A stretch of DNA of 64,000 bases from Chiloscyllium plagiosum (GCF_004010195.1 NC_057757.1:9425636-9489635), one strand, 5' to 3'; numbered from the stretch's first letter, positions 19,900 through 61,145 are shown. The notes: a model not told the origin generated them from the sequence alone. Numbers and translations are program-made.

Positions 19900-22800
19900 A
19901 GCAAGGAATCCTGTAAACACTGACACACGCACCCACCCACCAAGGAACCCCGTGGAAATACTGACACACTCCCCACTCTGGAAGCGCCATGGAATAACTG
20001 ACATCTCCTGCAGGGACTGTCTGTAAATCCGAGGAAATTCTGAAGCCAGCAGGCGTCCCCGGAAAGTCTGAGGAAATCCACCCCAGGGCACCCCTGGAAA
20101 TACTGACTCAAACCCACACTGCCTCTCATTCCGAGCCGCCCAAACCAGGGATTCCCCGTACATACTCATACATTCTACACAAAGACCCCTGTAAATACTG
20201 ACACTTCCTCCGCAGGCTCTCCTGAAAACAGTGACATATTCCCACTGGGTACCACCTGTAAATACGGACACATTCCGACTGGGCACCCCTTGTATATACT
20301 GACACATTCCCACTGGGACCCCCCTGTAAATACGGACACATTCCCACTGGGGACCCCTGTAAAAACTGACACACTCCCACTGGGAATCCCTGTAAATACT
20401 GTTACACTCTCCCCAGGGACCCTCTGTAAACACTGTGACACTCTCCCCGGGGAAACCCTGTAAATACTGTCACATTCTCCCCGGGTCCCTCTGTAAATAC
20501 TGTGACACTATCCCCAGGGACCATCTGTAAATACTGTCACAATCTCCCCAGGGACCCTCTATAAATAATGTTACACACTCCCCAGGGACCATCTGTAAAT
20601 AATGACTCATCCACCCCAAGGTCCCTCTGTAAATACTGTCACACTCCCCCCGGGTCCCTCTGTATATACTGTCACACTCTCCCCAGGGACCCTCTGTAAA
20701 TACTGTCACAGTCTCCCCAGTGACCCTCTGTAAATACTGTCACACTCTCCCCAGGGACCCTCTGCATATACTGACACACTCTCCCTTGGGACTCTGTAAA
20801 TAATGTCTCACTGTCCCCAGGGATCTCCTGCAATAACTGTCACACTTGCCCCAGGGATCCTCTGCAAATACTGTTACTCTCTCCCCAGTGACCCTCTGTA
20901 AATACCATTACACTCTCCGTAGGGTCCCTCTAAATACAGTCACACTCTCCCCAGGGACCCTCAGTAAATACTGACACACACTTCCCAGGGACCCCCTGTA
21001 AATACTGTCACACTCCCCAGGGACCCTCCAAAAATACTGTCACACTCTCCCAGGCACCATTTGTAAATAATGACCCACACTCCCCAGGGATCCTCTGTAA
21101 ATACTGTCAAACAATCCCAGTGACCCCCCTGTAAATAGTGACACACTCTCCCCAGCGACCCTCTGTAAATACTGTCACACTCTCCTCAGGGCCCCTCCGT
21201 AAATAATGTCATACTGTCCCAGAGACCATTTGTAAGTAATGACTCACTATCCCCAAGGGACCCTCTGTAAATACTGACACATTCCCACTGGGGACCCCTA
21301 TTAATATGGACACATTTGCACTGGGTTTACCCTGTAAATATCGACACATTCCCACTGGGGACCCCCTGTTAATATGGACACATTTGCACTGGGTTTACCC
21401 TGTAAATATCGACACATTCCCACTGGGGACCCCCTGTTAATATGGAAACATTTGCACTGGGCATCCCTTGTAAATACTGACATTCCCACTGTGGAACCTC
21501 TGTAAATACTGACACATTCCCACTGGGGACTCCCTGCAAATACTGACACATTTCCACTGGGAATCCCTGTAAATATGACACATTCCCCCTGGGGACCGGC
21601 TGAACATACTGTCACACTGACCCCAGGGATCCTCTGTAAATACTGTTACACTCTCCCAGGGACCCTCTGTAAATAATGACTCGCTGTCGCCAGGGACCCT
21701 CTGTAAATACTGTCATACTCTCCCCGGGGAAACCCTGTAAATACTGTCACATTCGCCCCGGGTCCCTCTGTAAATACTGTGACATTCTCCCCAGGGATCA
21801 TCTGTAAATACTGTCACAATTTCCCTAGGGACCCTCTGTAAATACTGTTACATACTCCCTAGGGACCATCTGTAAATAATGACTCACTCTCCCCAAGGTC
21901 CCTCTGTTAATACTGTCACACTCTGCACGGGTCCCTTTGTATATACTGTCACAGTCTCCCCAGGGACCCTCTGCAAACACTGTCCCCAGTGACCCTGTGT
22001 AAATACTGTTGCTCTCTCCCCAGTGACCCCCTGTAATACTGTCACTCTGCCCAGTGACCCTCTGTAAATATGGTCACACACTCCCCAGGGACCCTCTGTA
22101 AATACTGACATACTCTCCCCAGGGACCTTCTGCAAATAGTGTTACACTCTCCCCAGGGACCTTCTGCAAGTACTGTCACACTCTCCCAGAGACCATCTGT
22201 AAATGATGACTCACTCTCTGTAGGGTCCCTCTGTAAATACTGTCACACTCTCCCCAGGGATCCTCTGTAAATAATGACTCACTCTCCCCAGGGACCCTCT
22301 GTAAAAACTGTCACATTCCCACTGGGAACGCCTGCAAATCCTGACACATTGCCACTGGTCACCCCTTGTAAATACTGACACACTCCCACTGGGACCCCCT
22401 GTAAACACTGACACATTTGCACTGGGCATCCCCTGTAAATACTGACACGTTCCCACTGGGGACACCCAGCAACTACTGGCACATTTCCATTGGGCACCCC
22501 TTATAAATACTGACACATTTCCACTGGGACACCCTGTAAAACCTGACAAATTCGCACTGGGGAGTTCCTGTAAATACTGACAGATTCCCACTGGGAACCC
22601 CTGTAAATACTGACACAATCCCACTAGGGAGTCACTGTAAATACTGACACATTCCCACTGGGGACCCCTGTGTAAATACTGACACATTTCCACTGGGGAC
22701 ACACTGTAAATACTGACACATTCCCACTGGGGACTCCCTGTAAATACTGACACATTCCCATTGGGGACTCCCTGTAAATACTGACACATTCCCACTGGGG

Positions 22801-25800
22801 ACTCCCTGTAAATACTGACACATTCCCACTGGGGACACACTGTAAATACTGACACTTTCCCACTGGGGACACCCTGAAAGTAATGACACATTCCCATTGG
22901 GGACTCCCTGTAAATACTGATACATTCCCACTGGGAACCTCCTGTAAATACTGACACATTTCCACTGGGGACTCCTGTAAAAACTGACACATTCCCACTG
23001 GGGACCCCCTGTAAATACTGACTCATTCCCATTGGGGACCCCCACTAAATACTGACACATTCCCATTGGGGACACCCTGAAAGTAATGACACATTCCCAC
23101 TGGGGACCCCCAGTAAATACTGACACAGTCCCACTGGTGACACCCTGTAAATACTGACACAATCCCCCCGGGGACCCCTGTAAACACTGCTCCACCCTCC
23201 CCACAGACGCCCTGTAAATACTGTCACACTCTCCCCGCGTACCTCTGTATATACTGTCACACTCTCCCCGGGGACCCTCTGTAAATAATGTCACACTGTC
23301 CCCAGGGACCCTCTGCAAACACTGTCACACTCTCCCCAAGGACCCTCAGTAAATACTGTTGCTCTCTTCCCAGTGACTCTCTGTAAATACTGACACACTC
23401 TCCCCAGGGACCATCAGCAAATACTGTCACACTCTCACAGGGACCATCTGTAAATAAGGACACATTCTCCGCAGGGTCCCTCTGTATATACTGTCACACT
23501 CTCCCTAGGGACCCTCTGTAATACTGTCACAGTCTCCCTAGGGACCCCCAGTAAATACTGTTACACACTCCCCAGGGGCCCTCTGTAAACACTGCTACAC
23601 TCTCCCCAGGGACCCTCTGTAAATACTGTCACACACTCCCCAGGGAACATCTGTAAATACTGTCACACACTCCCCAGGGACCCTCTGTAAATACAGTCAC
23701 ACTCTCCCCAGGGACCTCCTGTAAATACTGTCACACTCTCCCTGGGGACCCTTTATAAATATTGTCACACTCTCCCCAGGGACACTCTGTAAATACTGTC
23801 ACACTATCCCCAGGGACACTCTGTAAATAATGTCAAACACACCCCAGGGACCCTCTGTAAATACTGTCACACTCTCCCCGGGAACCCCCCGTAAATACTA
23901 ACACACTCTTCCCGGGGAGCCTTTGTAAATACCGTCACACTCTCCCCAGGGACCCTCTAAATAATGTCACACTGTCCCCAGGACCCTCTGCTAACACTGT
24001 CAAACTCTCTCCAGGGATCCTCAGTAAATACTGTTGCTGTCTTCCCAGGGACCCTCTGTAAATACAGTTACACTCTCCCCAGGGACCCTCTATAAATCTT
24101 GTTACACTCTCCCCAGCGACCGTCTGTCAATACAGACACACTCTCCCCAGGGACCCTCTGTAAATACTGCCACACTCTCCCAGGGACCATTTGTAAATAA
24201 TGCCTCACACTCCCCAGGGACCCTCGGTAAATACTGACACACTCTCCCCAGGGACCCTCTGCAAATACTGTTACACTATCTCCAGGGAGCCCTTGTAAAT
24301 GCTGTCATACTCACCGCAGGGACACTCTGTAAATACTGTCACACTCTCCCCAGGGACCCTCTGTAAATATTGTTGCTCTCTCCCCAGTGACCCCTTGTAG
24401 TACTGTCACACTCTCCCCAGGAACCCTCTGTAAATACTGTGACACTCTCCCCAAGGACCCTCTGCAAATACTGTCACACTCTCCCCAGGGACCCTCTGTA
24501 AATACTGTTACAATCTCCTCAGGGACCATTTGTAAATAATGCCTCACACTCCCCAGGGACCCTCTGTAAATAATGTCACACTGTCCCCAGGGACCCTCTG
24601 CAAACACGGTCACACTCTCCCCAGGGACCCTCAGTAAATATTGTTGCTCTCTCCCCAGTGACCCCTTGTAGTACTGTCACACTCTCCCCAGGAACCCTCT
24701 GTAAATACTGTGACACTCTCCCCAAGGACCCTCTGCAAATACTGTCACACTCTCCCCAGGGACCCTCAGTAAATACTGTTTGTCCACCCCAGTGACCCCT
24801 TGTAGTACTGTCACACTCTGCCCAAGGACCCTCTGCAAGTACTGTCACACTCTCCACAGGAATCCCCTGCAAATACTGATCCACTCTCCCCAGGGACCCT
24901 CTGTAAATATTGTCACACTCTCCCCAGAGACCCCCTGTAAATACTTCCATGCTCTTCCCATGACCCCCTGTAAATACTGTCTCACTCTCCCCAGGTAGTC
25001 TCTGTAAATACTGGCACACTGTCCCCAGGGACCCTCGGGTAAATACTGTCACACTCTCCCCAGGGACACTCCTGTAAATACTGTCATACATTCCACCAGG
25101 GACACTTTGTAAATACTGTCAGATGTTCACCAGGGATTCTCTGTAAATACTGTTACAATCTCCCCAGAGACCCCTGTAAATACAGTCACACACTCCCCAT
25201 GGACCCTCTGTAAATACGTCTCACTCTCCCCAGGGATCCCCTGTAAATACTGTTACAATCTCCCCAGAGACCCCTGTAAATACAGTCACACACTCCCCAT
25301 GGACCCTCTGTAAATACGTCTCACTCTCCCCAGGGACCCCCTGTATATACTGTTACACTCTCCCCAGGGACCCTCTGTAAATACTGTCATACATTCCCCC
25401 TGGGACGCCTTGTAGGTACTGTCAGATGTTCGCCAGGGATTCTCTGTAAATACTGTTACAATCCTCCCAGAGACCCCCTGTATATACTGTCACACTCTCC
25501 CCATGGACCCTCTGAAAATACTGTTACACACTCCCCAGGGACCCCCTGTAAATAATGTCACACTCTCCCGGGGACCCTTTGTAAATACTGTCACACTGTC
25601 CTCAGGGACCGTCTGTAAATACTGTTACACACTCCCCAGGGGCCCTCTGCAAACACTGCTACACTCTCCCCAGGGACCCTCTGTAAATACTGTCACACAC
25701 TCCCCACGGAACATCTGTAAATACTGTCACACTCTCCCCATGGACCCCCTGTAATTACTGTCTCACTCTCCCCAGGTACTCTCTGTAAATACTGTCACAC

Positions 25801-28800
25801 TCTCCCCAGGGACCCTCCTGTAAATAGTGTCACACTCTCCCCAGGAACCCTCCTGTAAATACTGTCATACATTCCCCCAGGGACGCCTTGTAGGTACTGT
25901 CAGATGTTCGCCAGGGATTCTCTGTAAATACTGTTAAAATCTTCCCAGTGACCCCCTGTATATACTGTCACACTCTCCCCATGGACCCTCTGAAAATAGT
26001 TCACACTCCCCAGGGATCCCCTGTAAATAATTTCACACTCTCCCCGGGGACCCTTTGTAAATACTGTCACACTGTCCCCAGGGACCGTCTGTAAATACTG
26101 TTACACACTCCCCAGGAGCCCTCTGTGAACACTGCTACACTCTCCCTAGGGACCCTCTGTAAATACTGTCACACACTCCCCAGGGACCATCTGTAAATAC
26201 TGTCACACCCTCCCCAGGGACCCTCTGTGAACACTGCTACACTCTCCCTAGGGACCCTCTGTAAATACTGTCACACACTCCCCAGGGAACATCTGTAAAT
26301 ACTGTCACACCCTCCCCAGGGACCCTCTGTAAATACAGTCACACTCTCCCCAGGGACCCCCTGTAAATACTGTCACACTCTCCCTGGGGACCCTTTGTAA
26401 ATACTGTCACACTCTCCCCAGGGACTCGCTGTAAATAATGTCAAACACTCCCCAGGGACCCTCTGTAAATACTGTCACACTCTCCCCAGGGACCCTCTGT
26501 AAATACTGTCATACATTCCCCCAGGGACGCTTTGTAGGTACTGTCAGATGTTCGCCAGGGATTCTCTGTAAATACTGTTACAATCCTCCCAGAGACCCCC
26601 TGTATATACTGTCACACTCTCCCCATGGACCCTCTGAAAATACTGTTACACACTCCCCAGGGACCCCCTGTAAATAATGTCACACTCTCCCGGGGACCCT
26701 TTGTAAATACTGTCATACTGTCCACAGGGACCGTCTGTAAATACTGTTACACACTCCCCAGGGGCCCTCTGTAAATACGGTCACACTGTCCCCAGGGACC
26801 CTCTGCAAACACGGTCACACTCTCCCCAGGGACCCTCAGTAAATACTGTTGCTCTCTCCCCAGTGACCCCTTGTAGTACTGTCACACTCTGCCCAGTGAC
26901 CCTCTGTAAATACTGTCTCACTCTCCCCAGTTAGTCTCTGTAAATACTGGCACACTGTCCCCAGGGACCCTCGGGTAAATACTGTCACACTCTCCCCAGG
27001 GACCCTCCTGTAAATACTGTCATACATTCCACCAGGGACACTTTGTAAATACTGTCAGATGTTTACCAGGGATTCTCTGTAAATACTGTTACAATCTTCC
27101 CAGAGACCCCTGTAAATACAGTCACACACTCCCCATGGACCCTCTGTAAATACGTCTCACTCTCCCCAGGGACCCGCTGTATATACTGTCACACTCTCCC
27201 CATGGACCCTCTGTAAATACTGTTACACACTCCCCAGGGACCCCCTGTAAATACTGTCACGTTCCTTCTGGGGCCCCTTGTAAATACTGACACATTCCCC
27301 CTGGGGACCCCATGTAAATATTGACACATTCCCACTGGGGTCCCCTTGTAAATACTTACACATTGCCACTGGGTCACCCTGTAAATACTTACACAGTCCC
27401 ACTGGGGTGCCCTTGTAAATACTGACACATTCCCACTGGGGTCCCCTTGTAAATACTGACACATTCCCTCCGGGGACACCCGGGAAATACTGACACATTC
27501 CCACTGGGGACTTCCCGTAAATACTGACACATTCCCACTGGGGACACACTGTAAATACTGACATATTCCCACTGGGGACCCATTGTAAATACTGACACAT
27601 TCCCAATGGGGACCCCTGTAAATACTGACATATTCCCACTGGGGACCCATTGTAAATACTGACACATTCCCAATGGGGACCCCTGTAAATACTGACACAT
27701 TCCCCTGGGGAACCCCTGTAAATACTGACACATTCCCACTGGGGACCCATTGTAAATACTGACACATTCCCACTCAGGACCCCAGTAAATACTGACACAT
27801 TCCCACTGGGGAACCCCTGTAAATACTGACGCATTCCCACTGGGGAACCCCTGTAAATACTGGTACATTCCCACTCGGGACCCCAGTAAATACTGACACA
27901 TTCCCACTGGGGATCCCAGTAAATACTGACACATTCCCACTGGGCACCCACTGTAAATACTGACACATTCCCACTGGGGATCCCAGTAAATACTGACACA
28001 TTCGCACTGGGCATCCCCTGTAAATACTGAAATATTTCCACTAGGGACCCCCTGTAAATACTAACACATTCCCACTGGGGACCACCCGTAAATACTGACA
28101 CTATCCCACTGGGGTTTCCCAGTAAATACTGACACATTCCCCCTGGGATCCACAGTAAATACTGACACATTCCCGCTGGGAACCCCCTGTAAATACTGTA
28201 CCACGCTCCCCAGGCACCCTCTGTAAATAGTTTCGGACTCTTCTCAGTGACCCTCTGTAAATACTGTCACACTCACCACAGCGACTTTCTGTAAATACTG
28301 TCACACTCTCCCCAGGGACCCTCTGTAAATACTGTCACAATCTCCCCAGGGACTCTCTGTAAATACTGTCACACTCTCCACAGGGACTTTCTGTAAATAC
28401 TGTTACACTCTCCCCAGTGACCCTCTGTAAATACTGTCACACTCTCCCCAGGGACTCTCTGTAAATACTGTCACACTCTCCCTATGGAACCTCTTTAAAT
28501 ACTGTCACAGTGTCCACAGGGACCCTCTTTAAATACTTTCACACTCTCCACAGGGGCCCTCTGTAAATAATGGCACACTCAACCCAGGGACCCTTTGTAA
28601 ACACTGTCACACTGTCCCCAGGCACACTCTGTAAATACTGGAACACAGTCCCAAGGGACCCTCTGTAAACACTGCTACACTCTCCCTAGTGACCCTTTGT
28701 AAATACTGTCACACTCTCCCCAAGGACCCTCTGTAAATACTGTCACATTCCCACTGGAGACACCACTATAACAATGGACACATTCTCACTGGGAACCCCC

Positions 28801-31436
28801 CCCCCCGGGGCCTCCCTGTAAATACTGACACATTCCCACTGGGGACCCCCTGTAAATACTGACACATTCCCACAGAGGCCTCCCTGTAAATACTGACACA
28901 TTCCCACTGGGGCCTCCCTGTAAATACTGACACATTCCCACTGGGGACCCCCTGTAAATACTGACACATTCCCACAGGGCCTTCCTGTAAATTCTGACAC
29001 ATTCCCACTGGGGTCACTGGGGACACCCTGTAAATACTGACACATTCACACTGGGAACCCCCTGTAAATACTGACACATTCCCACTGGGGCCTCCCTGTA
29101 AATACTGATACATTCCCTTTGGGCACCCGCTGTAAATACTGGCACATTCCCACTGGGGACCCACTGAATATACTGACATATTCCCTCTGGGGACCCCCTG
29201 TAAATACTGATACATTCCCTCTGGGAACCCTCTATAAATACTAACAAATTCCCAATGGGCACCCTTTTAAATACTGAAATATTCCCACTGGGTACTCCCT
29301 GTAAATACTGTCACATTTTCACTGGGGACACCCTGTAAATACTGACACATTCACACTGGGAACTCCCTGTAAATACTGACACATTCCCACTGGGGTTTCC
29401 CTGTCAATAATGACATAATCCGACTAGGGAACACCCTGTAACTACTGACACACTCCCACTGGAGACCACCTGTAAATACTGACACAATCCCACTGGGTCC
29501 CCCTGTAAATACTGACACATTCCCACTGGATCCTCCTGTAAATACTGACACATTCCCACTGGATCCTCCTGTAAATACTGACACATTCCTTCTGGGGACA
29601 CTCTGTAAATACTGACACATTCCCACTGGATCCTCCTGTAAATACTGACACATTCCTTCTGTGGACCCCCTGTAAATACTGACACATTCCCACTGGGGAC
29701 CCCCTGTAAACACTGACACATTCTAACTGGGGCCTCCCTGAAAATAATGACATATTCCCACTGGGGACTCCCTGTAAATACTGACACATTCCCACTGGGG
29801 ACCGACTGCAAATATGGACAGATTTGCACTGGGGACCCCCTGTAAATACTGACACATTCGCACAGGGCATCCCCTGTAAATACTGAAATATTCCCACTGG
29901 AGACCACCTGTAAATACTGACACATTCCCACTGGGGTTCACCAGTAAATACTGACACATTCCCACTGGAGACCACCTGTAAATACTGGCACATTCCGACT
30001 GGGGACCCCCTGTAAATACTGACACATTCCCCCTGCGGAACCCAGAAAATATTGGCACATTCCCACAGGGGACCCCCTGTAAAAACTGTTCCACTCTCGC
30101 CAGGGACCCTCTGTAATAGTTTCAGACTCTTTCCAGCAATCCTCTGTAAATACTGTCACACTCTCCCCAGTGATCCTCTGTAAATACTGTCACACTCTCC
30201 CCAGTGACCTTCTGTAAATACTGTCACACTCTCCCCAGGGACCCTCTGTAAATACTGTTACACTCACATTCCCACCGGAGACCACCTGTAAATACTGACA
30301 CATTCCCACTGGGGTTTCCCAGTAAATACTTGCACATTCCCACCGGAGACCACCTGTAAATACTGACACATTCCCACTGGGGTTTCCCAGTAAATACTTG
30401 CACATTCCCACCGGAGACCACCTGTAAATACTGACACATTCCCACTGGGGACACGCTGTAAATACTGACACGTTCCCTCTGGGGCCCCCCAGTAAATACT
30501 GACACATTCCCAATGGGGGCCCCCTAGTAAATACTGACACATTCCAAATGGGTGCCCCCTGTAAATGCTGACACATTCCCACTGGGGTCCCCTTGTAAAT
30601 ACTAAGACATTCCCTCTTGGGACACCCTGGAAATACTGAAACATTCCCCTGGGGACCCCATGTAAATACTGACACAGTCCCACTGGTGTCCCCTTGTAAA
30701 TACTGACACATTCCCACTGGGGTCCCCATGTTAATACTGACACATTTCCCACTGGTGTCCCCTTGTAAATACTGACACATTCCCACTGGGGACTCCCTGT
30801 AAATACTGACACATTCCCACTGGGGACTCCCTGTAAATACTGACACATTCCCACTGGGGACTCCCTGTAAATACTGACACATTCCCACTGGGGACTCCCT
30901 GTAAATACTGACACATTCCCACTGGGGTCTCACTGTAAATACTGACACATTCCCACTGGGGACCCCCTGTGAATACTGACACATTCCCACTGGGACTCCC
31001 TATAAATACTGGTACATTCCCACTGGGGACCCCAGTAAATACTGACACATTCACACTGGCATCCCCTGTAAATACTGAAATATTCCCACTAGGGACCCCC
31101 TGTAAATACTAACACATTCCCACTCGGGACCACCCGCAAATACTGACACATTCCCACTGGGGTTTCCCAGTAAATACTTGCACATTCCCACCGGAGACCA
31201 CCTGTAAATACTGACACATTCCCACTGGGGACCCCCTGTAAATACTGATACATTCCCCCTGTGATCCACAGTAAATACTGGCACATTCCCGCTGGGAACC
31301 TCCTGTAAATACTCTACCACTCTCCCCAGGCACCCTCTGTAAATAGTTTCTGACTCTTTTCAGTGACCCTCTGTAAATACTGTCACACTCTCCACAGGGG
31401 CCCTCTGTAAATACTTTCACGGTCTCCCCAGGGACC
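19900..31436. repeat. About 11.5-kb tandem satellite, 34-bp unit, two subtypes
   Basis: Type A is TGTAAATACTGTCACACTCTCCCCAGGGACCCTC and type B is TGTAAATACTGACACATTCCCACTGGGGAC(T/C)CCC. The 34-bp period is exact at 30781-30920. The left edge is degenerate. Confidence 0.97.
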
Positions 31437-32865: not shown

Positions 32866-34429
32866 GAACCATACTGAAGCAATACAAACACAAGCCGCTA
32901 CCAATGTAAAATAGTCCCAACTTTATTAGGAACAAAGTTACAACAATCTTTAATACTAAACATACTATCTCTAATCCTATTTAGCCCCTTAATGTTACAG
33001 TATTTCATCAGTCTCTTGTAAATCTATGTAGTTACTCTCTCTCTGCCTCTGTGAAGCCTCCTTCCTCTCTCTCTGGATGGAGAGCTAGCCTCCTTGGAAG
33101 ATCTCAGATGATTCCAACAGCACAGTTTTGCAGGTGAACTCTGTTTTTAATACCTGAGATGGTTTTCCAGAACTTTCTATAGTTCTGACCAATCAGGGAG
33201 ATCATTTTATAGTTTGAAACAGTTAATCATTTGGATGGCTTGCTGCGGTTAGTTCCTTTGTGTAGCAGGATCCAATGTCTTTGTTTTGGCCCTCCTTTGT
33301 TTAGTGGATAAGTTGTGGGGGTACGTCCACCCAGGATAACTGCTGCCGTTTACATTATGCTGATGTCATCACCCAGTTGCTGTGTTTGCACTTTGCCTGG
33401 GGTGTGTGTTACTACAACTGACTGGCTTACTCAGTCCAAGTGACCCTAGACAAAGAACTATCCCCTATTTACCCCCTGATTTTCAGGTAAAGATCCTCGG
33501 AATGCTACAAATCACAAAAATGTAGGACAAAGGATTTTTATCTCACACCCTGAGCACTGAACTACAGGATCTCAATCAATCTGCAAAAAGCCAAAGACCT
33601 GATGAAGGAGCGTCGCTCCGAAAGCTAGTGTGCTTTCAACTAAACCTGTTGGACTATAACCTGGTGTTGTGTGATTTTTAAGTTTGTACAACCCAGTCCA
33701 ACACTGGCATCTCCAAATCATTTTTTGAAATCAATTGTGTTACTAACTCTTCTCACTTTAGTAATTAATAAACTCACTTCATTCACAGAAGCCTAGTTAA
33801 TTCGGCACCTTGTTTAAAAAAAAAGCATATCTGTACCCATGAGGGAAGGTGTTCTGTTTAAATTATCCATCTTGTGTTCAACTGAGGGAATAGCTGAATA
33901 GATAAGGGAAGTCAATTCATCCTGCTTCACTTCAGGCTTTAATGTACTGGGAAACAGCCTGTCTCAGAATGACAGTGGAACAGCAATGGCAGGAGTTTGT
34001 GGGAGGGTAGGGGGTGGGGGGAGATAGGTTTGGGGGGAGGGATGGNNNNNNNNNNNNNNNNNNNNNNNNNNNNNNNNNNNNNNNNNNNNNNNNNNNNNNN
34101 NNNNNNNNNNNNNNNNNNNNNNNNNNNNNNTGGCATTGGCGGTGGCAGGAGTGGAGGGCGGTATTGGACGGGGTTGGGGGTGAGCATGGGGTCAATGATT
34201 GATGGGATTGGGGGCAGGTGGGGACGGGAGTGGGGGCGATGTTGGACAGGTTTGTGGGGTGGATGGGTGGGTGGGAGCTCGCGTGCAGTGTCCTGCTGCC
34301 TTGACTCCTGAGCGGTGAGTGGACAACAGGAAACTCTGAGCTCCAGAGGAAAGGGATTGAATCAATTAACCGAATAATCAATTATACGAATGAAATGTCC
34401 TTCGGGTAATCGAGGTTCCTCTGTATTTG

Positions 34430-36833: not shown

Positions 36834-36999
36834 TCCATGTAAGGAGGGACATGCAGGGTGAACAGGAAGGGATTCCATGTAATGGAGAGACATGCAGGGT
36901 GAACAGGAAGGGATTCCATGTAATGGAGGGACATGCAGGGTGAACAGGAAGGGCCATGTAATGGAGGGACATGCAGGGTGAACAGGAAGGGATTCCATG
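36834..36999. repeat. About 41-bp tandem repeat, 4 copies
   Basis: Unit tccatgtaatggagggacatgcagggtgaacaggaagggat. Confidence 0.9.
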
Positions 37000-39526
37000 A
37001 AGGATAGCAAAGATTAAAAACTTCTGGCAGAGAGTGTTTACAGTTACATTCAGGGATGGTGCATGTATGGAATAAGCTGCCATAGACTGGTACAGTTGCA
37101 TTTAAAAGGCATCTGGATGGATACATGAATAGAAACGGTTGAGGGGAATAAGCGCCTAGATTTATCTAGGATATCTAGCTGGCATGGACTAATTGGACCA
37201 AAGGGTCTGTTTCTGTGCTGTATCCTTGACAGATAGAAGCACTGCATAAATCCCTAGGTTTTTCAAATTTAAACATTTAAATTGCAACAAAAAGTAGGAT
37301 GAACTGATCACAAAATGAAGTGGGAAATGGTAACCATATTGGGACTCCATACAGGTACGTAACACTAAGGGTAAAGTTGGAAGCTTGACATGAGTAGTTG
37401 CTTTGGCAGTTCAAAACCAGGATGGATATATAATTATGTAATAAAGACATAATTAGAGGGTCTATGTGCACCACACCCATAGTAACCTTGCAGTCAGGTG
37501 GAGCATAAAGGAAGACTGAGCACTTCACAACAGACTGAATGATAATCACTGGTGACCTTATTCTATACCAAGCCTAGAAAGCAGCATGAGTAATGATGGC
37601 CTAACTGGAGTCCTTAGAATAGCTTTGGATTAACTTCCTAGACTAAGGATGCTCTGAAAAGTAGAGAGCAGGCTGTGTAGTAGACCTGGCAAGCAGCCAT
37701 AAGGCAAGGTCAATCATATGAATTCAGCCTCTCCTCAGTAGGCAGTTATAGAATTACTGAGGGGTGGGAGTGGTCAAAGATTAGCATCAAGCTCAAGGGC
37801 AATTGAGGGCATAGAAGCCAAGTTAGCAAATTAAGGGGTAGGTCAATAAAATGCTGTGGCAGACATTATCTCAGTGATCCATCCATTCCAGAATGGAAAA
37901 TTACCAAATATTGGATCCCTGGTTTGGAAAGGGAAGATGGAGAAGGAGGGTTGTGCAAAGGTAAACAGCAATCAAGTTTGGGAAAGTTGAGATTAAACGG
38001 TACCAGAAAAATGATAACACCAATAGCCACACGTTTCATAAGTCTTCCCTTAGAAAGTGTTGTACCTCATCATGAATGATCCAAATATTGGGTGATATGG
38101 GTATTTTGTAGTTCTCACTGAGAATACAATGTAACATCCCAGAATTGGTTCTAAACTAGGAAGTGGTAGTGAAGAGAAGCAAATTAATACTAAATAAACA
38201 GTTGGGGCTACAGGCTGAGAAGGATCAAGGTCCCGAGAGCATTCATCCTTTGGAAAGATACTGGATACATTTGGGAGAGGGACTGAAAGAGAAATGCAAT
38301 CAATTAAAGAAACTACAGGCTGGAGGAGTGACTAAGACATATCTAGGTACTCTATGTAGTGAAGTACATTAGTGTAGTTGGGAGATTTGAGATCAAACTG
38401 TGAAATGGAGGAATGCTATTGAATGAGGAAAGGCTGGACATGCATCTGAAGAGCAAGTTGTCTCAATCAAGTTGAGAGGGTGGGCTGTGTCTAGTTAGAT
38501 GTCAGCACATTTCCTCTTGGGTGGGTGGGAGGAAGGATTTCATATTAAGGATTAGTCATTTAAACTAAAAAATTCAAATAAAAACCTTGGAACGTTCTCT
38601 GAAGAGGTAGAAGTAGAGTCCTTCAATGTTGAAGGCAGATGTGGATAGATTCAAAGTAAGCAATGGGTGAAAGGTTCAGGGTAGACAGGAAGGGTATTCA
38701 AGGTTTATTAATAATCAGTTTTGTATTCAGTGTTAAAGCAGGCCTGACTGCACTAGATTAGATTCTCTACAGTGTGGAAACAGGCCCTTCGGCCCAACTA
38801 ATCCACACCGACCCTCCGAAGAGTAACCCACCCAGACCCATTCCCCCTGACTAATGCACTAACTCTATGGGCAATTTAGCTTTACTAATTCACCGAACCT
38901 AATTTCACTACTCATTGTGCAAACCAATGTAAAACATGAAATTGGGTGCAATTGCTTTGCAAAATTCTGATAGTTCAAATAACTGATTGAAACTGACTGA
39001 TGTTTGGTGGATTATGGATTAGAATGTTGCTATACCTAACAGCATAGATTCAGATTTCACCCATCTCTCATTACCAACAGGATTTGCTGATCTTGCTTTG
39101 ACAGTTCCTCAAGGACTCATCACACATTTCCCCATCTGATATATGTCTGTTCAGAGCTTACAATTCACCACATGGAATAACAGCAGCAGTTCTTGGTCTC
39201 TTCATGTACACTGCAACCATCACTACCAGCAGGGATAGAGACACCATCTGGAGGCCAATGACTGTTCCATGCAGAACCCAAGGGGTCCCAGCAACATCTT
39301 TGGGGGGAGAGAGAGATCAGAGGATGGTTTCTTTAGCTGGAGATCACAGGTGACCTATTACAGAGGCTTCACTCACCATTTGCTTCAAGTTGTTTCTTTG
39401 CAGTGTAACTGCTCCCTCCCAGGAGGATTGGGCCAGGTGCACTCACCACTGTCCCCTCATGGGGATGGGTACTCCTGCGCTGCCCTGTTGGAGACAAAGA
39501 TTAGATAGTTTGACCCAATCCAGGAG

Positions 39527-41024: not shown

Positions 41025-42178
41025 ATAGAACAAAGAAAAATACAGCACAGTACAGGCCCTTTGGCCCTCGATGTTGTGCCGATCCAAGCCCACCTAACCT
41101 ACACTAGCCCACTATCCTCCATATGCCTATCCCACGCCCGTTTAAATGCCCATAAAGAGGGAGAGTCCACCACTGCTACTGGCAGGGCATTCCATGAACT
41201 CACGACTCGCTGAGTAAAGAATCTACCCCTAACATCTGTCCTATACCTACCACCCCTTAATTTAAAGCTATGCCCCCTCGTAATAGCTGACTCCATATGT
41301 GGAAAAAGGNNNNNNNNNNNNNNNNNNNNNNNNNNNNNNNNNNNNNNNNNNNNNNNNNNNNNNNNNNNNNNNNNNNNNNNNNNNNNNNNNNNNNNNNNNN
41401 NNNNNNNNNNNNNNNNNNNNNNNNNNNNNNNNNNNNNNNNNNNNNNNNNNNNNNNNNNNNNNNNNNNNNNNNNNNNNNNNNNNNNNNNNNNNNNNNNNNN
41501 NNNNNNNNNNNNNNNNNNNNNNNNNNNNNNNNNNNNNNNNNNNNNNNNNNNNNNNNNNNNNNNNNNNNNNNNNNNNNNNNNNNNNNNNNNNNNNNNNNNN
41601 NNNNNNNNNNNNNNNNNNNNNNNNNNNNNNNNNNNNNNNNNNNNNNNNNNNNNNNNNNNNNNNNNNNNNNNNNNNNNNNNNNNNNNNNNNNNNNNNNNNN
41701 NNNNNNNNNNNNNNNNNNNNNNNNNNNNNNNNNNNNNNNNNNNNNNNNNNNNNNNNNNNNNNNNNNNNNTTGCCATCACCTACTACCCTCTGTCTTCTTC
41801 CATCCAGCCAATTCCTAATCCAAACCTCCAACTCACCCTCAGTGCCATACCTCCGTATTTTCTGCAGTTGTCTACCATGGGGAACCTTATCAAACGCCTT
41901 ACTAAAATCCATATACACCACATCTACCGCTTTACCCTCGTCTACCTCCTTAGTCACCTTCTCAAAGAATTCAATAAGGTTTGTGAGGCACGACCTGCCC
42001 TTCACAAAACCATGCTGACTATCCTTGATCACATTATTCCTATCCAGATGTTCATAAATCCTATCCCTTACAATTCTCTAAGACTTTGCCCACAACAGAA
42101 GTGAGACTCACCGGCCTATAGTTACTAGGGTTATCCCTACTCCCCTTCTTGAACAAGGGAACCACAGTTGCTATCCTC
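41025..42178 (-). mobile_element. CR1 LINE spanning an N gap
   Basis: IKDSQHGFVKGRSCLTNLIEFFEKVT...VDVVYMDFSKAFDKVPH lies on one side of the gap and the CR1 3' end on the other. Confidence 0.9.
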
Positions 42179-43020
42179 TGTGCAATGTTGTAGAAAGATA
42201 GTGACCCAGACTAAAAGATTTAGAATGGAATCCCACTGGTGTTTTGAGGAACTGTTGGGAAACCTCTTGCTGCACACTTTGTTCCCAAGTGATTGCTGCA
42301 CCTGCAAACTAACTATGTTCCATAAATTGAGAGACGAGCCTTTCTCTGCCATTATTTCCCTGAAGAATGTTGTTCTGTTCTTCCTGCCAAAGTGGAAGAG
42401 CTCATTTTGTCATCAAGTTCTACCAAAAGTTGTTGCTGACTTGACATTACATCCCTTCATTCACAGGAGGCCCAGCAGTGGTTCTGGAGTCAAAAGCAGC
42501 AAGAATAGAAGACTTCCTGAGGGAGAGGAGAATTTTAATAAAAACTTTGACAGCAGTTACATGGTAACTATTTAAACAGCTTTTTATTCTACGTTTCTGG
42601 AATTCAAATTTCAGCACCTGCTGTGGAGAGATTTGAACCAAATCCCAGGAACACTAGCCTGGAATTCTGGATTGCTAGTCCAGGCACACCACCCATCCTT
42701 TCTCTCTTCACGCCTTTTACCTATCTGCAATCAAATTTAGCTATTGGAAATTGACATGAATGAAGGAACCATAAAAAGAGATCTAATGAATAGAATCCCA
42801 GCATTACTTTCCCGGTTTGGATGACCCATTCATGGCTTCTGTTTTACATTACCAACAGAATCCTTTCTTCATGTTACACCCCTGCACTGCAAAGTTCTTT
42901 TGTAATCTGGGGCACTTTCAAGAAAACGGCCATCTGCCAATTCTCCTTTATTCACATGGTTCATTACATTCTTGAAGGCCATTTAAACACCATTTGTCTT
43001 CCACAAAACAAGGAACTCAC

Positions 43021-43093
43021 TTGGACCAAACATGGGCGTACAGTCATCCTGAGCAGAGGGAGAGCAAACCTCAGCACTGCGGTGCAAGTAAAC
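43021..43093 (-). pseudogene. Degenerate ZP-C domain exon of a ZP4/ZPB-like gene
   Basis: Acceptor ccttctttctag| and donor A|gtgagt flank a 73-bp exon reading VYLHRSAEVCSPSAQDDCTPMFGP. This matches the ZP1/ZP4 motif VYLHCS..VC.P.....C...C, with two Cys replaced (R and F). Confidence 0.7.
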
Positions 43094-43965
43094 CTAGAAA
43101 GAAGGAGAGATGTTAGGAGAGCTTCCCATAGATCAATAGCCCAGTTTGTAGCACACAGACAGCAAGAGGATTTCATGAACTTGGCTTCATTCCTTCCATT
43201 TGGTTACCTGTCCAGAGAGGGGCTGCTCAGGTAAGATAGCTGGGAATGTGATAGGAAGATGAAGGTGGGGTTGAAGGTGATAGGTCTGAACGGAGGCAGG
43301 AAGATAGACAGGTAGGACAGTTCAAGAGGGCAGTGTGGAGTTAGAAATTTGGATCTGGGATAAGGTGGCGGGAGATCAAACAAGAAAGCTGCTGAAATCC
43401 ACATTGATCTCGTGTGGTGAATTGTCCATGCTAATTGCCCATAGTGTTCAGGGCTGTGTAGGTTAGGTGCATTAGTTAGGGGTAAATGTAGAGTAATAGG
43501 ATAGGGCAATGTGTCTGGCTGGGTTACTCTTTGGAAGGTTTGTGTGGACTTGTTGGGCTTAAGGGCCTGTTTCCATGCTGTAGTGATTCTATGATTCATG
43601 TTATGTGGCTGTATGGAGTCCAATGCATCACTATGTGGTCCCCATTTCCAACTCCATTTTGTAATCTGTTCATCCTACACTCTTTGCAGTTTAGGTTTAT
43701 AAACGTAGGAATTTATGCAGTGCCTCAGGCCTGGAGATATACAGCATAAAAACAGACCCTTCAGTCCGACTCATCCATGACAACCAGATATTCCAATTTA
43801 ATCCCATTTGGCCCATTACCCTCCAAACCTACCTATTTATGTACCCATCCAGATAACTTTTAAATGTCATTTGTACCAACCTCCACTACTTCCTCTGGCA
43901 GGTCATTTCCATACATTCAGAGGGTGGTGTACATAACTCGTCAAATTGCAGTGGCTATAAAAACA

Positions 43966-44187
43966 AAGTTAAAAATCACACAACACCAGGTTATAGTTCA
44001 ACAGGTTTAATTGGAAGCACACTAGCTTTCGGAGCGACGCTCCTTCATCAGGTGATTGTGGACAATCCGAAAGCTAGTGTCGCTCCGAAAGCTAGTGTGC
44101 TTCCAATTAAACCTGTTGGACTATAACCTGGTGTTGTGTGATTTTTAACTTTGTACACCCCAGTCCAACACCACCATCTCCGAATCA
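43966..44187. mobile_element. Palindromic Penelope-derived mini-element with 14-bp TSD and an intact minimal hammerhead motif
   Basis: TGGCTATAAAAACA at 43952-43965 and 44188-44201. Inverted arms at about 43964-44040 and 44079-44153. Minus strand 44020-44054 reads CAC CTGATGA A GGAGC GTC GCTCC GAAA GC TA GTG. Confidence 0.8.
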
Positions 44188-44329
44188 TGGCTATAAAAAC
44201 AGGCAACCTACCCGGGTTAAGTTACTTCCTCAATAGACAATTCATAGGACGGACTAGAAGAGGACATTTCTAGGGAAGTTTCTCTACCCATTCTTTGTTC
44301 TACAATAGGGACAGCAACAAATCTTAAAC

Positions 44330-45190
44330 TTTTTGTCCACCATCTCAGGCAACTCCAGCAGGACACCAAGCAAGTCTTTCCCCTCCCTCACCCCGTCCGC
44401 ATTTCACAGGGATTGTTCCGTCTGGGACACCCGAGTCTATTCCACAGCCACCAACGCCACTGCCCACATTGAACTGCAGAAAGTACGGCACCTGCCCCCT
44501 CTCCTCCCTGCTCACCATTCAAGGACCTAAACAGTCTTTCCAGGTGAAGCTGCACTTCCAATTGTGTATTGTATTCACTGCACCCAACATGGTGCATTCT
44601 ACATTGGAGAAACCAACGACTGGGTGACCACTTTGCAGACCACCTCTGGTCTGTGTGCAGCAGGACTCCAACCTTCCTATCACTGGTCATTTTAACATAG
44701 TGTCCTGCTCACATGCCTGTCCTCAGCGTGTTGCATTGTTCCAGTGAAACACACAAACTGATCAACATCTCATCTTCCATACTGTAGGGTTTCTATGACT
44801 TTATGATTCAGACAAGGCACTTTACAGCCTTCTGGACTTAATATTGAGTTCAACACCTTCAAACTGAACTAGTTCTTCCCTTTATTTTAGCTTGTTACAT
44901 TCTGTTATCATGACCTTTCTGCCCTATCCTAGTGAGAGGGTCTGTCCTTTCAAGACTAGCAGGAGACACCATTGCTCTGCCACTCAGATTCCAATCACTT
45001 CATTAGAACTAACATCTCTCCTCCACCAGCACCCATTACCCCCAAACGGTAGCACATCCACACTTCAGTTCGGAGGGAGAATAACCACGAATTAAAACAT
45101 TATTTTTGCTCTCTCCGTGGATGCTGTCTGACCAAATGATCACCAACATTTGTTGTTTTCAGTACAGATTCCAGCATCTGTAGTAAGTTG
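44330..45190 (+). mobile_element. Degenerate Penelope-like element (GIY-YIG region)
   Basis: YCIHCTQHGAFYIGETN-like motif at about 44565-44620, followed by the GLNIEFN C-terminus. Confidence 0.6.
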
Positions 45191-45883
45191 CCCTGACATT
45201 TAGCCATTGAAAAGGAAGTTACCTGTCCAGGTTCCCTTGAGAAACAGTTCTGTAGCAGTTGACGTTCTTCTGTTCAGAACAGGCGCCCAGACATAAGTCT
45301 CAGATATGACTTTATTGTTAGATGTATTGTGACAAAGTACTGTTCTAAATGCTAATCAGACAAACCATTCCTTACACAAGGACATCAGGGTAATGGAACC
45401 AAATATAAAATAATATTATATCCAGAGAAAAGTCAATTTTAACAATAAGGGGCCTGTTCAAAGATCAAATTAAGAGACACTTCCAGCCTTCTCCATGCCC
45501 TTTGAAAAAGCAGGGTTCAAAGTTAAACGAGACAACACTACAACTAAAAGTTAATACGAAACTAAAAATCACACTAACTTTTACAACAGTCATTATGTCA
45601 GGACAGAATGTGAATATCAACACGACTCCACATTTTGTTATTAAATAACAAAACTAAAAACAAAAATCCCTGGGTTATTTCCTCACCTACAGAAAAGAAG
45701 TCTTTCTCTCTCTCTCTCTCTACCTCCCACTGACTCCCACAAACAGCCCTTCACCATTGTACAAGGAAACACCAATAAGTCCCGGGTTATTTCCTCAGTG
45801 CCAGCCTGGGGTGGTCCTCATGCTTCCTTCCCCCCCCCCCATTCGGGGTGGGCTCCGCTCCGGGAGGAGGCTGGGCTGCTTAC

Positions 45884-46088
45884 CTGGGCTGTCTCTCAGG
45901 TTGTAGAAACAGGATTGCCCACTGAGACTCGGGGACTGAAAGCAGCAGCCCTGCTTGATGCACTCAGTGCTGTTGATAGTGGCCAGGCCACACGGCAGCC
46001 TCCAGCCCGGCTCCGGAGGACACACAGCAGAGACCAGGAAGGGCCGAGCGGCCCAAAGGTACAGACACCAAACCAACCAATGTCCCAT
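45884..46088 (-). CDS. First coding exon: signal peptide plus trefoil (P-type) domain, ZP4/ZPB-like
   Basis: ATG at 46088 in good context (gcgATGG). Reads MGHWLVWCLYLWAARPFLVSAV CPPEPGWRLPCGLATINSTECIKQGCCFQSPSLSGQSCFYNLRDSP, i.e. C-x9-C-x9-C-x4-CC-x10-C. Donor CAG|gtaagc at 45883 (phase 1). Confidence 0.8.
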
Positions 46089-46130
46089 CGCGCTGCCTGA
46101 ATCTGTGCCCGCCCCTGAGCACCAACCCGC

Positions 46131-46154
46131 TTTATAGCCGCTAATTAGCACCTG
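46131..46154 (-). promoter_or_regulatory. Candidate core promoter: TATAAA, homeodomain palindrome GCTAATTAGC and E-box CAGGTG
   Basis: TATAAA at 46136-46131, about 43 nt upstream of the ATG. TAATTA at 46142-46147. CACCTG/CAGGTG at 46149-46154. Confidence 0.6.
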
Positions 46155-46519
46155 GCCACGGGTTTCTCGTGTTGAAGAGGCTTTAACTGTCACTGATCCT
46201 CATTAAGGATTAGGGCGAGATTCCAGCTACAATTACATCTTCACAACTGACGCTGCGTTCCACTGAGCCCAAGATTGTATTTTGTTCCAGAATCGGTTCT
46301 GCGTGGATATGGAAGTAGGAAACAAGAGTCAGAGAATTATGACGGTGCAGAGGAGGACATTCGGCCCATCAGCAGTCCTGTTCTCCAGTACTAACCTGCT
46401 GCCTCTCCCCACACACTATTTCCATCCAGATAACCCCCAAAGTCCCTCCTGAATGCCTGAACTGAATCTGCCTCCCCCACGTTTCCAGGCAGTACATACC
46501 CTCCCCTAACTACTGACTG

Positions 46520-47042
46520 GGTGAAAGACCTTTTCCCATCATATCAGGCAACAGTCCAGCAAATTTCCTCTGAACCCTTTCCAAAGCTTCCACATCCTTC
46601 CTATAAGGCGGCGACCAGAACTGCACACAGTACTCCAAATGTGGCCTAACCAAAGTCCTGTACTGCTGTAACATCACTTCACGACTCTTGAATTCAGTCC
46701 CTCTGCTAATGAACGCTAATACACTATAGGCCTTCTTACAAGCTCTATCCACCTGTGTGGCAACTTTCAAAGATCTATGAACATAGACCCCAAGATCCCT
46801 TTGTTCCTCCACCTCACTAAGAACCCTACCGTTAACCCTGTATTCCGCATTCTTATTTGTCTTTCTAAAATGGACAACCTCACACTTGGCAGGGTTGAAC
46901 TCCATCTGCCACTCCTCAGCCCAGCTCTGCATCATATCTAAGTCTCTTTGCAGCCGACAACAGCCCTCCTCACTATCCACAACTCCACCAATCTTCGTAT
47001 CATCTGCAAATTTACTGACCCACCCTTCGACTCCCTCATCCA
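46520..47042 (-). mobile_element. CR1 LINE RT fragment
   Basis: VSKFADDTKIGGVVDSEEGCCRLQRDLD...[15 protein letters not shown]. Confidence 0.9.
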
Positions 47043-60782: not shown

Positions 60783-61145
60783 CCAAAGATGCGCAGGTTA
60801 GGTGAATTGGCCATGCTAAATTGCATAGTGTTCATGGATGTGTAGGTTAGGTGAATTGGCCATGCTAAATTGCCCTTGGTGTTCACAGATGTGTAGGTTA
60901 GGTGAACTGGCCGTGCTAAATTGCCCATAGTGTTCATGGATGTGTAGGTTAGGTGAATTGGACGTGCTAAATTGCCCATAGTGTTCACAGATGTGTAGGT
61001 TAAGTGAATTGGCCGTCCTAAATTGCCCACAGTGTTCAGGAATATGTAGGTTAGGTGCATTAGTCAGAGGCAAATGTGAGTAATAGGGTAGGGGAATGGG
61101 TCTGGGAGGATTACTCTTCCAACAAGGGTTGGTGTGGACTTGTTG
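60783..61145 (+). mobile_element. 5'-truncated HE1 SINE with a 51-bp internal segment amplified about 5 times
   Basis: gatgtgtaggttaggtgaattggccatgctaaattgcccatagtgttca is repeated in tandem. Confidence 0.85.

Follow-up and report, generated by a model that had tools for sequence, protein, structure and literature searches.

Gene structure and surroundings

The DNA analysed here, referred to as the window, is a stretch of 64,000 nucleotides from the bamboo shark Chiloscyllium plagiosum (GCF_004010195.1 NC_057757.1:9425636-9489635). On its minus strand lies a zona pellucida 4-like (ZP4-like, ZPB) gene, of which four exons were found in the window, namely exon 1 and three 3' exons, all bounded by AG/GT. 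The coding part of exon 1 (46088-45884, 205 nt) begins with the ATG at 46088, has its donor after 45884, is left in phase 1 and encodes a putative signal peptide and a ZP-type trefoil domain, which was recognised by the Pfam Trefoil model PF00088 at residues 23-63 (E 4.6e-08, 33.2 bits, cut-off 21). A putative TATA box (TATAAA, 46136-46131) is located 43-48 nt upstream of the ATG. The promoter region, exon 1 and the start of intron 1 form a multi-copy block (45850-46528), here called the head, that is common to other ZP4-like copies.

Exon 1 is followed by a fused intron remnant of 2790 nt without any N (43094-45883) and by the last ZP-C exon (43093-43021, 73 nt), which has kept its AG/GT sites, is entered in phase 0 and left in phase 1, and carries Arg at codon 5 and Phe at codon 22 in place of the Cys found in all 19 paralog exons compared. 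Inside the intron 3' of this exon lies an assembly gap of 460 N (41310-41769), across which the gene is joined to an exon with the furin site and the external hydrophobic patch (EHP; 39484-39377, phase 1-1) and an exon with the transmembrane segment, tail and stop codon (39297-39158). Both are open and free of premature stops and frameshifts. If a substitution is called private when the residue was seen in no examined paralog, the furin/EHP exon has one (Asp>Pro) and the transmembrane exon five, including a Leu>Gln in the helix; the best 19-residue hydropathy of the latter is 2.33, compared with 2.47-2.74 in eight paralogs of the same type.

According to PMC6262864, the ZP1/4 subfamily is defined by a trefoil that precedes the ZP module. 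The locus has both a putative signal peptide and a trefoil in this position, as judged by Pfam and by an N-terminus equal to that of intact ZP4-like models. The C-terminal furin site, EHP and transmembrane exon of the same subfamily are also present, across the N gap. The full ZP-N and ZP-C module of a functional ZP4 subunit is not, since five of its blocks are absent from the window, and the conserved ZP-C Cys residues and the single open frame have been lost through the two Cys changes and a shift from phase 1 to phase 0.

A preliminary description of the locus had proposed a ZP4/ZPB-like gene with an intact promoter, a trefoil-bearing exon 1 and a late ZP-C exon devoid of two conserved Cys. 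The identity was borne out by the closest matches, which are named ZP4-like in Chiloscyllium and Hemiscyllium, and exon 1 by the Pfam scan that the description had itself suggested; both Cys changes are present in the window sequence. Its exon inventory was right for exon 1 and the late ZP-C exon and overlooked the two in-frame ZP4 exons beyond the gap, as well as the fact that exon 1 exists in many copies. As to the promoter, its intactness is borne out as near-identity to other copies, with a putative TATA box.

The nearest gene is of the neuroligin-2 type, with its last two exons at 4101-3304 and 2076-1258 (minus strand); exons for the first 290 residues are not in the 64-kb window. A neuroligin exon differs from that of C. 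punctatum at 11 of 274 positions. In all five shark species for which a comparison could be made, the sequence with this neuroligin and the one with the annotated ZP4-like genes differ in length. Therefore, either the window copy is a dispersed one, which may sit within a long intron of the neuroligin gene, or the gap 34046-34130 marks a wrong join of the scaffold. The window also contains an 11-kb satellite (20233-31436) of about 328 copies of a 34-nt unit, with a higher period of 102 nt and a strong GC skew, and tandem arrays at 60787-61061 (51-nt units, SINE-internal) and 36834-37004 (41-nt units).

Relation to other ZP4-like genes

Exon 1 matched proteins named ZP4-like in C. plagiosum, C. 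punctatum and Hemiscyllium ocellatum. The family comprises 33 members in four clusters, 23 of which were covered by the comparison. Among these 23 bamboo-shark models, exon 1 was identical over all 68 residues in 13, matched at least 65 of 68 in 20 and was absent in three. RefSeq annotates the members as zona pellucida sperm-binding protein 4-like, and one of them (XP_043542102.1, here P0013) has an exon 1 identical to that of the window copy. The 3' exons of the two differ, with 20 of 24 residues identical in the last ZP-C exon, 31 of 35 in the furin/EHP exon and 35 of 45 in the transmembrane exon. Four of the 20 bamboo-shark models that bear exon 1 also lack internal blocks (P0002, P0004, P0026 and P0027), as do ZP4-like models of whale shark and horn shark; judged from their protein sequences, such internally shortened models may reflect real deletions or annotation artefacts. 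Many ZP4-like copies are carried by catsharks as well, in clusters of 16 and 4.

Behind a near-identical exon 1 and ZP modules, the bamboo-shark copies have two types of 3' end with different furin/EHP and transmembrane exons, seen when P0013-P0025 were compared with P0002 and P0015; in this respect the window copy goes with P0013. A stretch just upstream of the window copy (46213-46299, minus strand) is annotated as the C-terminus of the RefSeq models P0003, P0012, P0022 and P0026, and the P0011 model extends into the promoter of the next copy. On sequence grounds, these odd C-termini and the P0011 overrun are signs of head-to-tail arrays and mis-spliced gene models. A profile match to the last exon at 46299-46213 was discarded as circular, because the aligned P0012 ends in a mis-spliced piece of the same region, and by tblastn no upstream ZP4 copy was found at 46.3-64 kb of the window.

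Tandem duplications and pseudogenes of ZP genes have been reported across vertebrates (PMC6262864; PMC13704971), and the whale shark genome paper, in the portion available, treats ZP domains in general terms only (PMC8455134). Although the copies are annotated in RefSeq, no description of a shark ZP4 array was found in the literature covered, which comprised main texts and few subscription journals.

Probable loss of the central exons

In relation to the full-length model P0013, the window copy is missing residues 69-318, about 250 codons that comprise all of ZP-N, the linker and most of ZP-C. Searches by tblastn with 27 ZP4-like proteins (E up to 0.01) identified no middle exon in the window. 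Profile HMMs of the five missing blocks, with block limits chosen by the analyst on P0013, scored at most 2.9 bits in the interval 43094-45883 and at most 10.5 bits anywhere in the window, compared with 51-107 bits for the four retained exons by the same approach. A simple screen of the interval found no cryptic phase 1-0 exon that would restore the frame. Repeats elsewhere in the window match 1006 of the 2790 nt, and 8 of 11 depth bins over 42972-45908 have a summed contig depth above 1000 in the two DNA runs of the same organism. The preliminary description had characterised this interval as gap-free, mostly repetitive and without recognisable ZP-N/ZP-C exons, and all of this holds.

Two places in the interval were considered as the site of the break. 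A palindromic repeat element (43953-44201) is flanked at both ends by a 13-nt direct repeat; since these direct repeats are intact, the flanks belong to one site and the element is a plain insertion. The candidate breakpoint region is 43233-43597, where two different repeats meet at 43416-43418 with a 3-nt overlap. We take the upper one to be a tRNA-derived SINE and the lower one a Penelope-like fragment. Both are cut short relative to other copies in the window, and the lower repeat does not resume past the upper one. The flanks of the junction share no word longer than 5 nt, so that a duplication of 6 nt or more is absent. This configuration, judged against the other repeat copies of the window, would suit end-joining or a recombination of two copies of the SINE, and an assembler jump inside the SINE would look similar. 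An internal deletion at the locus is thus likely.

Sequencing runs and the age of head and body

Of 24 sequencing runs listed, four were compared with the window, one of them an RNA run (X21) and three of them DNA runs, X1 and X5 from the same organism and X9 from a sister organism; X1 may be the source of the assembly itself, and X5 comes from another sample and study. Over the head, the X1 contig (45850-46488) has a depth of 142 with two differences in 639 nt, the X5 contig (45878-46528) a depth of 121.7 with three differences in 651 nt, and the X9 contig (45875-46082) a depth of 117.6, compared with depths of 4-17 for the other contigs listed in these runs. In X1 this amounts to an excess of roughly 7-16 fold, the lower figure holding for a single-copy depth of about 20 and the higher for about 10. 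In all three runs, single-copy depth was seen for parts of the interval and of the downstream introns, and five such pieces of X9 show 116 mismatches to the window in 2237 letters. The body of the window copy is therefore single-copy and predates the separation of the two organisms.

The head behaves differently. Under neutral drift in one lineage about 17 differences would be expected, and the two (X1) and three (X5) that were seen have probabilities of about 1e-5 and 4e-5. At sites that differ between the organisms, the window head sides with the copies of its own species, with at most one of about nine sites against (P 0.02), and non-coding DNA makes up about 400 nt of the near-identical sequence. 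In the simplest interpretation of these sequence comparisons, the head was recently copied or gene-converted from other copies, or it is an assembly consensus. Either way, the intactness of exon 1 counts for little as evidence of selection on the window copy, since many intact copies have exactly the same exon. Within the interval, an X5 contig departs from the window below 44881 (124 loose letters), where an X1 contig matches, and an X9 contig departs at 44196, where the palindromic element ends; both may be insertion polymorphisms.

The 3' exons present another picture. Private substitutions amount to 0 of 68 codons in exon 1 and 8 of 104 in the three 3' exons (Fisher p=0.023), and eight intact paralogs scored in the same way have 0-5 each over all four exons. 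Two of the eight changes hit Cys residues that are invariant in 19 paralog exons, and one puts Gln into the membrane helix. At the protein level, signs of relaxed selection are seen in the 3' exons and not in exon 1, and these changes point to decay of the 3' exons, as far as their sequence goes. The contrast can be read in two ways, as it is predicted by conversion of the head and equally by selection on a trefoil-only product. The Cys>Phe state was also found on a 924-nt X1 contig (42144-43067) without any difference. Cys>Arg was not reproduced, since all seven contigs at 43081 in the three DNA runs carry the Cys codon, contigs being prone to drop rare variants. For Asp>Pro, X1 and X5 agree with the window and X9 has the ancestral letters.

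A single-cell RNA run (X21; tissue not given, about 2 in 100 reads sampled) had zero depth over 45375-46442. The bins that hold the next exons had depths of 0.13 and 0.4, and the one read among the differences listed there has five other differences. The zero depth carries no weight on the window copy, because exon 1 of the intact copies is absent from this run too.

Predicted products and likeness to trefoil factors

As the preliminary description had stated, splicing of the phase 1 exon 1 directly onto the phase 0 ZP-C exon shifts the frame and yields 75 residues, with seven Cys after residue 21. The seventh Cys and the stop arise from off-frame reading of three unchanged codons of the ZP frame (Ser-Ala-Glu), for which no alternative letter is among the differences listed for the multi-copy contigs. 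Since Cys and stop come from these ancestral codons, any copy that lost the same exons would probably end likewise. When all four exons are spliced, 158 nt separate the stop from the last exon junction downstream of it. By the 50-55 nt rule of nonsense-mediated decay, such a transcript is therefore a likely target of this pathway.

The description had left the choice between a ZP pseudogene and a ZP-derived peptide resembling the trefoil factors TFF1 and TFF3, made by internal deletion. The internal deletion and the pseudogene branch are upheld. The peptide branch is not, as exon 1 is common to intact copies, the stop precedes the last exon junction by 158 nt, the seventh Cys is off-frame, and lectin residues and an acidic flank are lacking. 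The six-Cys trefoil domain of TFF1 and TFF3 is present, and a seventh Cys outside the domain exists only in the predicted frame-shifted product. TFF1 and TFF3 bind sugar via an Asn/Asp and a Trp (PMC7221086). The window copy has Pro and Ser at the positions before Cys II and Cys VI; the absence of the Trp before the last Cys had already been noticed correctly in the description. Both sugar-binding residues are also missing from fish ZP1 (10.1101/2023.06.21.544075). Acidic residues that flank the free Cys of TFF1 were proposed to permit exit from the endoplasmic reticulum (ER) and secretion with a free thiol (PMC7350206), and the seven-residue tail of the predicted product has none. With respect to descent, the domain sides with the ZP trefoils and not with the TFF clade, as it is 100% identical to ZP4-like trefoils and reaches 20-26 bits against TFFs, a measure of similarity and not of a tree.

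In a word-limited search of a 90% database, no relative of 37-119 residues was found. Among 50% representatives there were 96 matches, of which the three closest new ones (272, 128 and 309 residues) are whale-shark ZP4-like models that contain ZP sequence, and none of these three is a trefoil-only protein. Metagenome matches at three loci, two of 11 residues and one of 31%, were set aside as irrelevant. Within main texts and few subscription journals, nothing was found in the literature on a ZP-derived stand-alone trefoil or on the evolution of shark TFFs. The resemblance to a trefoil factor looks like an accident of the break and not like a new gene.

Origin of the locus

Taken together, the locus is probably an internally deleted, decaying pseudogene of the amplified bamboo-shark ZP4-like (ZPB) family. 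It combines a disabling lesion with retained introns and intact paralogs elsewhere, as a duplicated pseudogene does. In this reading, a true internal deletion removed the central part of the ZP module from a duplicated ZP4-like gene, with the break at or within the truncated repeats at 43233-43597, presumably through recombination of repeat copies or end-joining with the 3-nt overlap. Promoter and exon 1 would look new owing to recent copying or conversion from family members, or partly to consensus assembly. An oocyte transcript that splices all remaining exons would run into the premature stop and probably undergo nonsense-mediated decay. The copy would be unable to make a filament-forming ZP subunit, and intact copies elsewhere would supply ZP4. 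There are counterpoints to this pseudogene reading: selection on exon 1 would also give the contrast in private substitutions, no splice site is damaged, the last two exons have kept their frames, Cys>Arg did not recur in the other runs, and the interval is spanned by no listed contig.

That the deletion is an artefact, with the middle exons actually present or head and tail taken from different copies after the assembler jumped a repeat, is unlikely. It would agree with a gapped scaffold (N runs 34046-34130 and 41310-41769), with a near-identical multi-copy family whose C. plagiosum models sit on contigs of 1-89 kb, and with the fact that no listed contig spans the whole interval, 43416-43597 being bridged by no listed piece. 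However, the 3' exons are decayed whatever stands between them and exon 1, Cys>Phe and Asp>Pro were both found again outside the assembly, in other runs, and the palindromic repeat has kept its matching direct repeats. Further, an X5 contig with distances to its end of 68 and 67 at 43381-43382 would end near 43449, which fits a crossing of 43416.

It is more doubtful still that the deletion is real and that promoter and exon 1 are under selection to make a stand-alone ZP-type trefoil, be it secreted or membrane-tethered. A secreted 75-residue peptide with a free seventh Cys, acting like TFF1 or TFF3, is very improbable. The intact head and splice sites, the seven Cys and the lack of private changes in exon 1 would suit it, and a transcript that ended at the AATAAA at 42952, 69 nt beyond the ZP-C exon, might in principle avoid decay. 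However, this is one of six such words in 36-47 kb and stands behind an intact donor, and the early stop, the origin of Cys and stop in off-frame Ser-Ala-Glu codons, a last Cys devoid of the flank proposed for ER exit of TFF1 (PMC7350206) and the failure of the word-limited database search to find a relative of 37-119 residues all speak against such a product. Equally remote is an oocyte-surface trefoil tethered to the membrane, in which the ZP-C exon is skipped and decay escaped. Exon 1 joined to the last two exons gives 150 residues in frame, and exon 1 joined to the last exon 114, two forms that the preliminary description did not contain. Both joins are phase 1-1, the frame stays open until the last exon's natural stop, neither of the last two exons has a stop or frameshift, and the hydrophobic helix is kept (2.33). 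On the other hand, an exon with intact acceptor and donor would have to be skipped, the last exon has five private changes with Leu>Gln in the helix among them, the join deletes the first Arg of the furin motif, and the exon link crosses the N gap. The phase compatibility itself is inherited gene structure and not new.

Implications and known parallels

As a pseudogene, the locus merely adds another broken copy to an amplified family of egg-coat genes and matters little in itself. It draws attention to the many ZP4-like copies of sharks, with near-identical promoter and exon 1 and copy-specific introns, for which RefSeq annotation exists and no publication was found. If the assembly is right, the locus illustrates concerted evolution on a small scale, with a young head on an old single-copy body. 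A stable trefoil-only product, if true, would illustrate the route from a shuffled trefoil module to a free peptide, and, if the selection reading were true, an egg-coat gene would recently and independently have given rise to a gene of the trefoil-factor kind. Such a product would offer a natural means to study what the ZP trefoil does and raise the question of its ligands, which were called unclear in PMC7221086.

Three known systems can be set beside the locus. Compared with the ZP4-like gene P0013, residues 69-318 are gone, two ZP-C Cys are changed and the frame is broken. TFF1 and TFF3 resemble it in the six-Cys spacing, in the predicted product with one domain and an outside seventh Cys, and in matches to PDB entries with E 0.003-0.005, whereas the window copy has a ZP-type trefoil without the Asn/Asp and Trp, no acidic flank, a ZP4 promoter and a premature stop. 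The third system is the amplified ZP3/ZP4 arrays of catfish, in which, as here, broken copies occur among many tandem or segmental duplicates; the catfish pseudogenes listed have zero expression (PMC13704971). In the window copy, the loss takes the form of one large internal deletion behind a near-pristine head.
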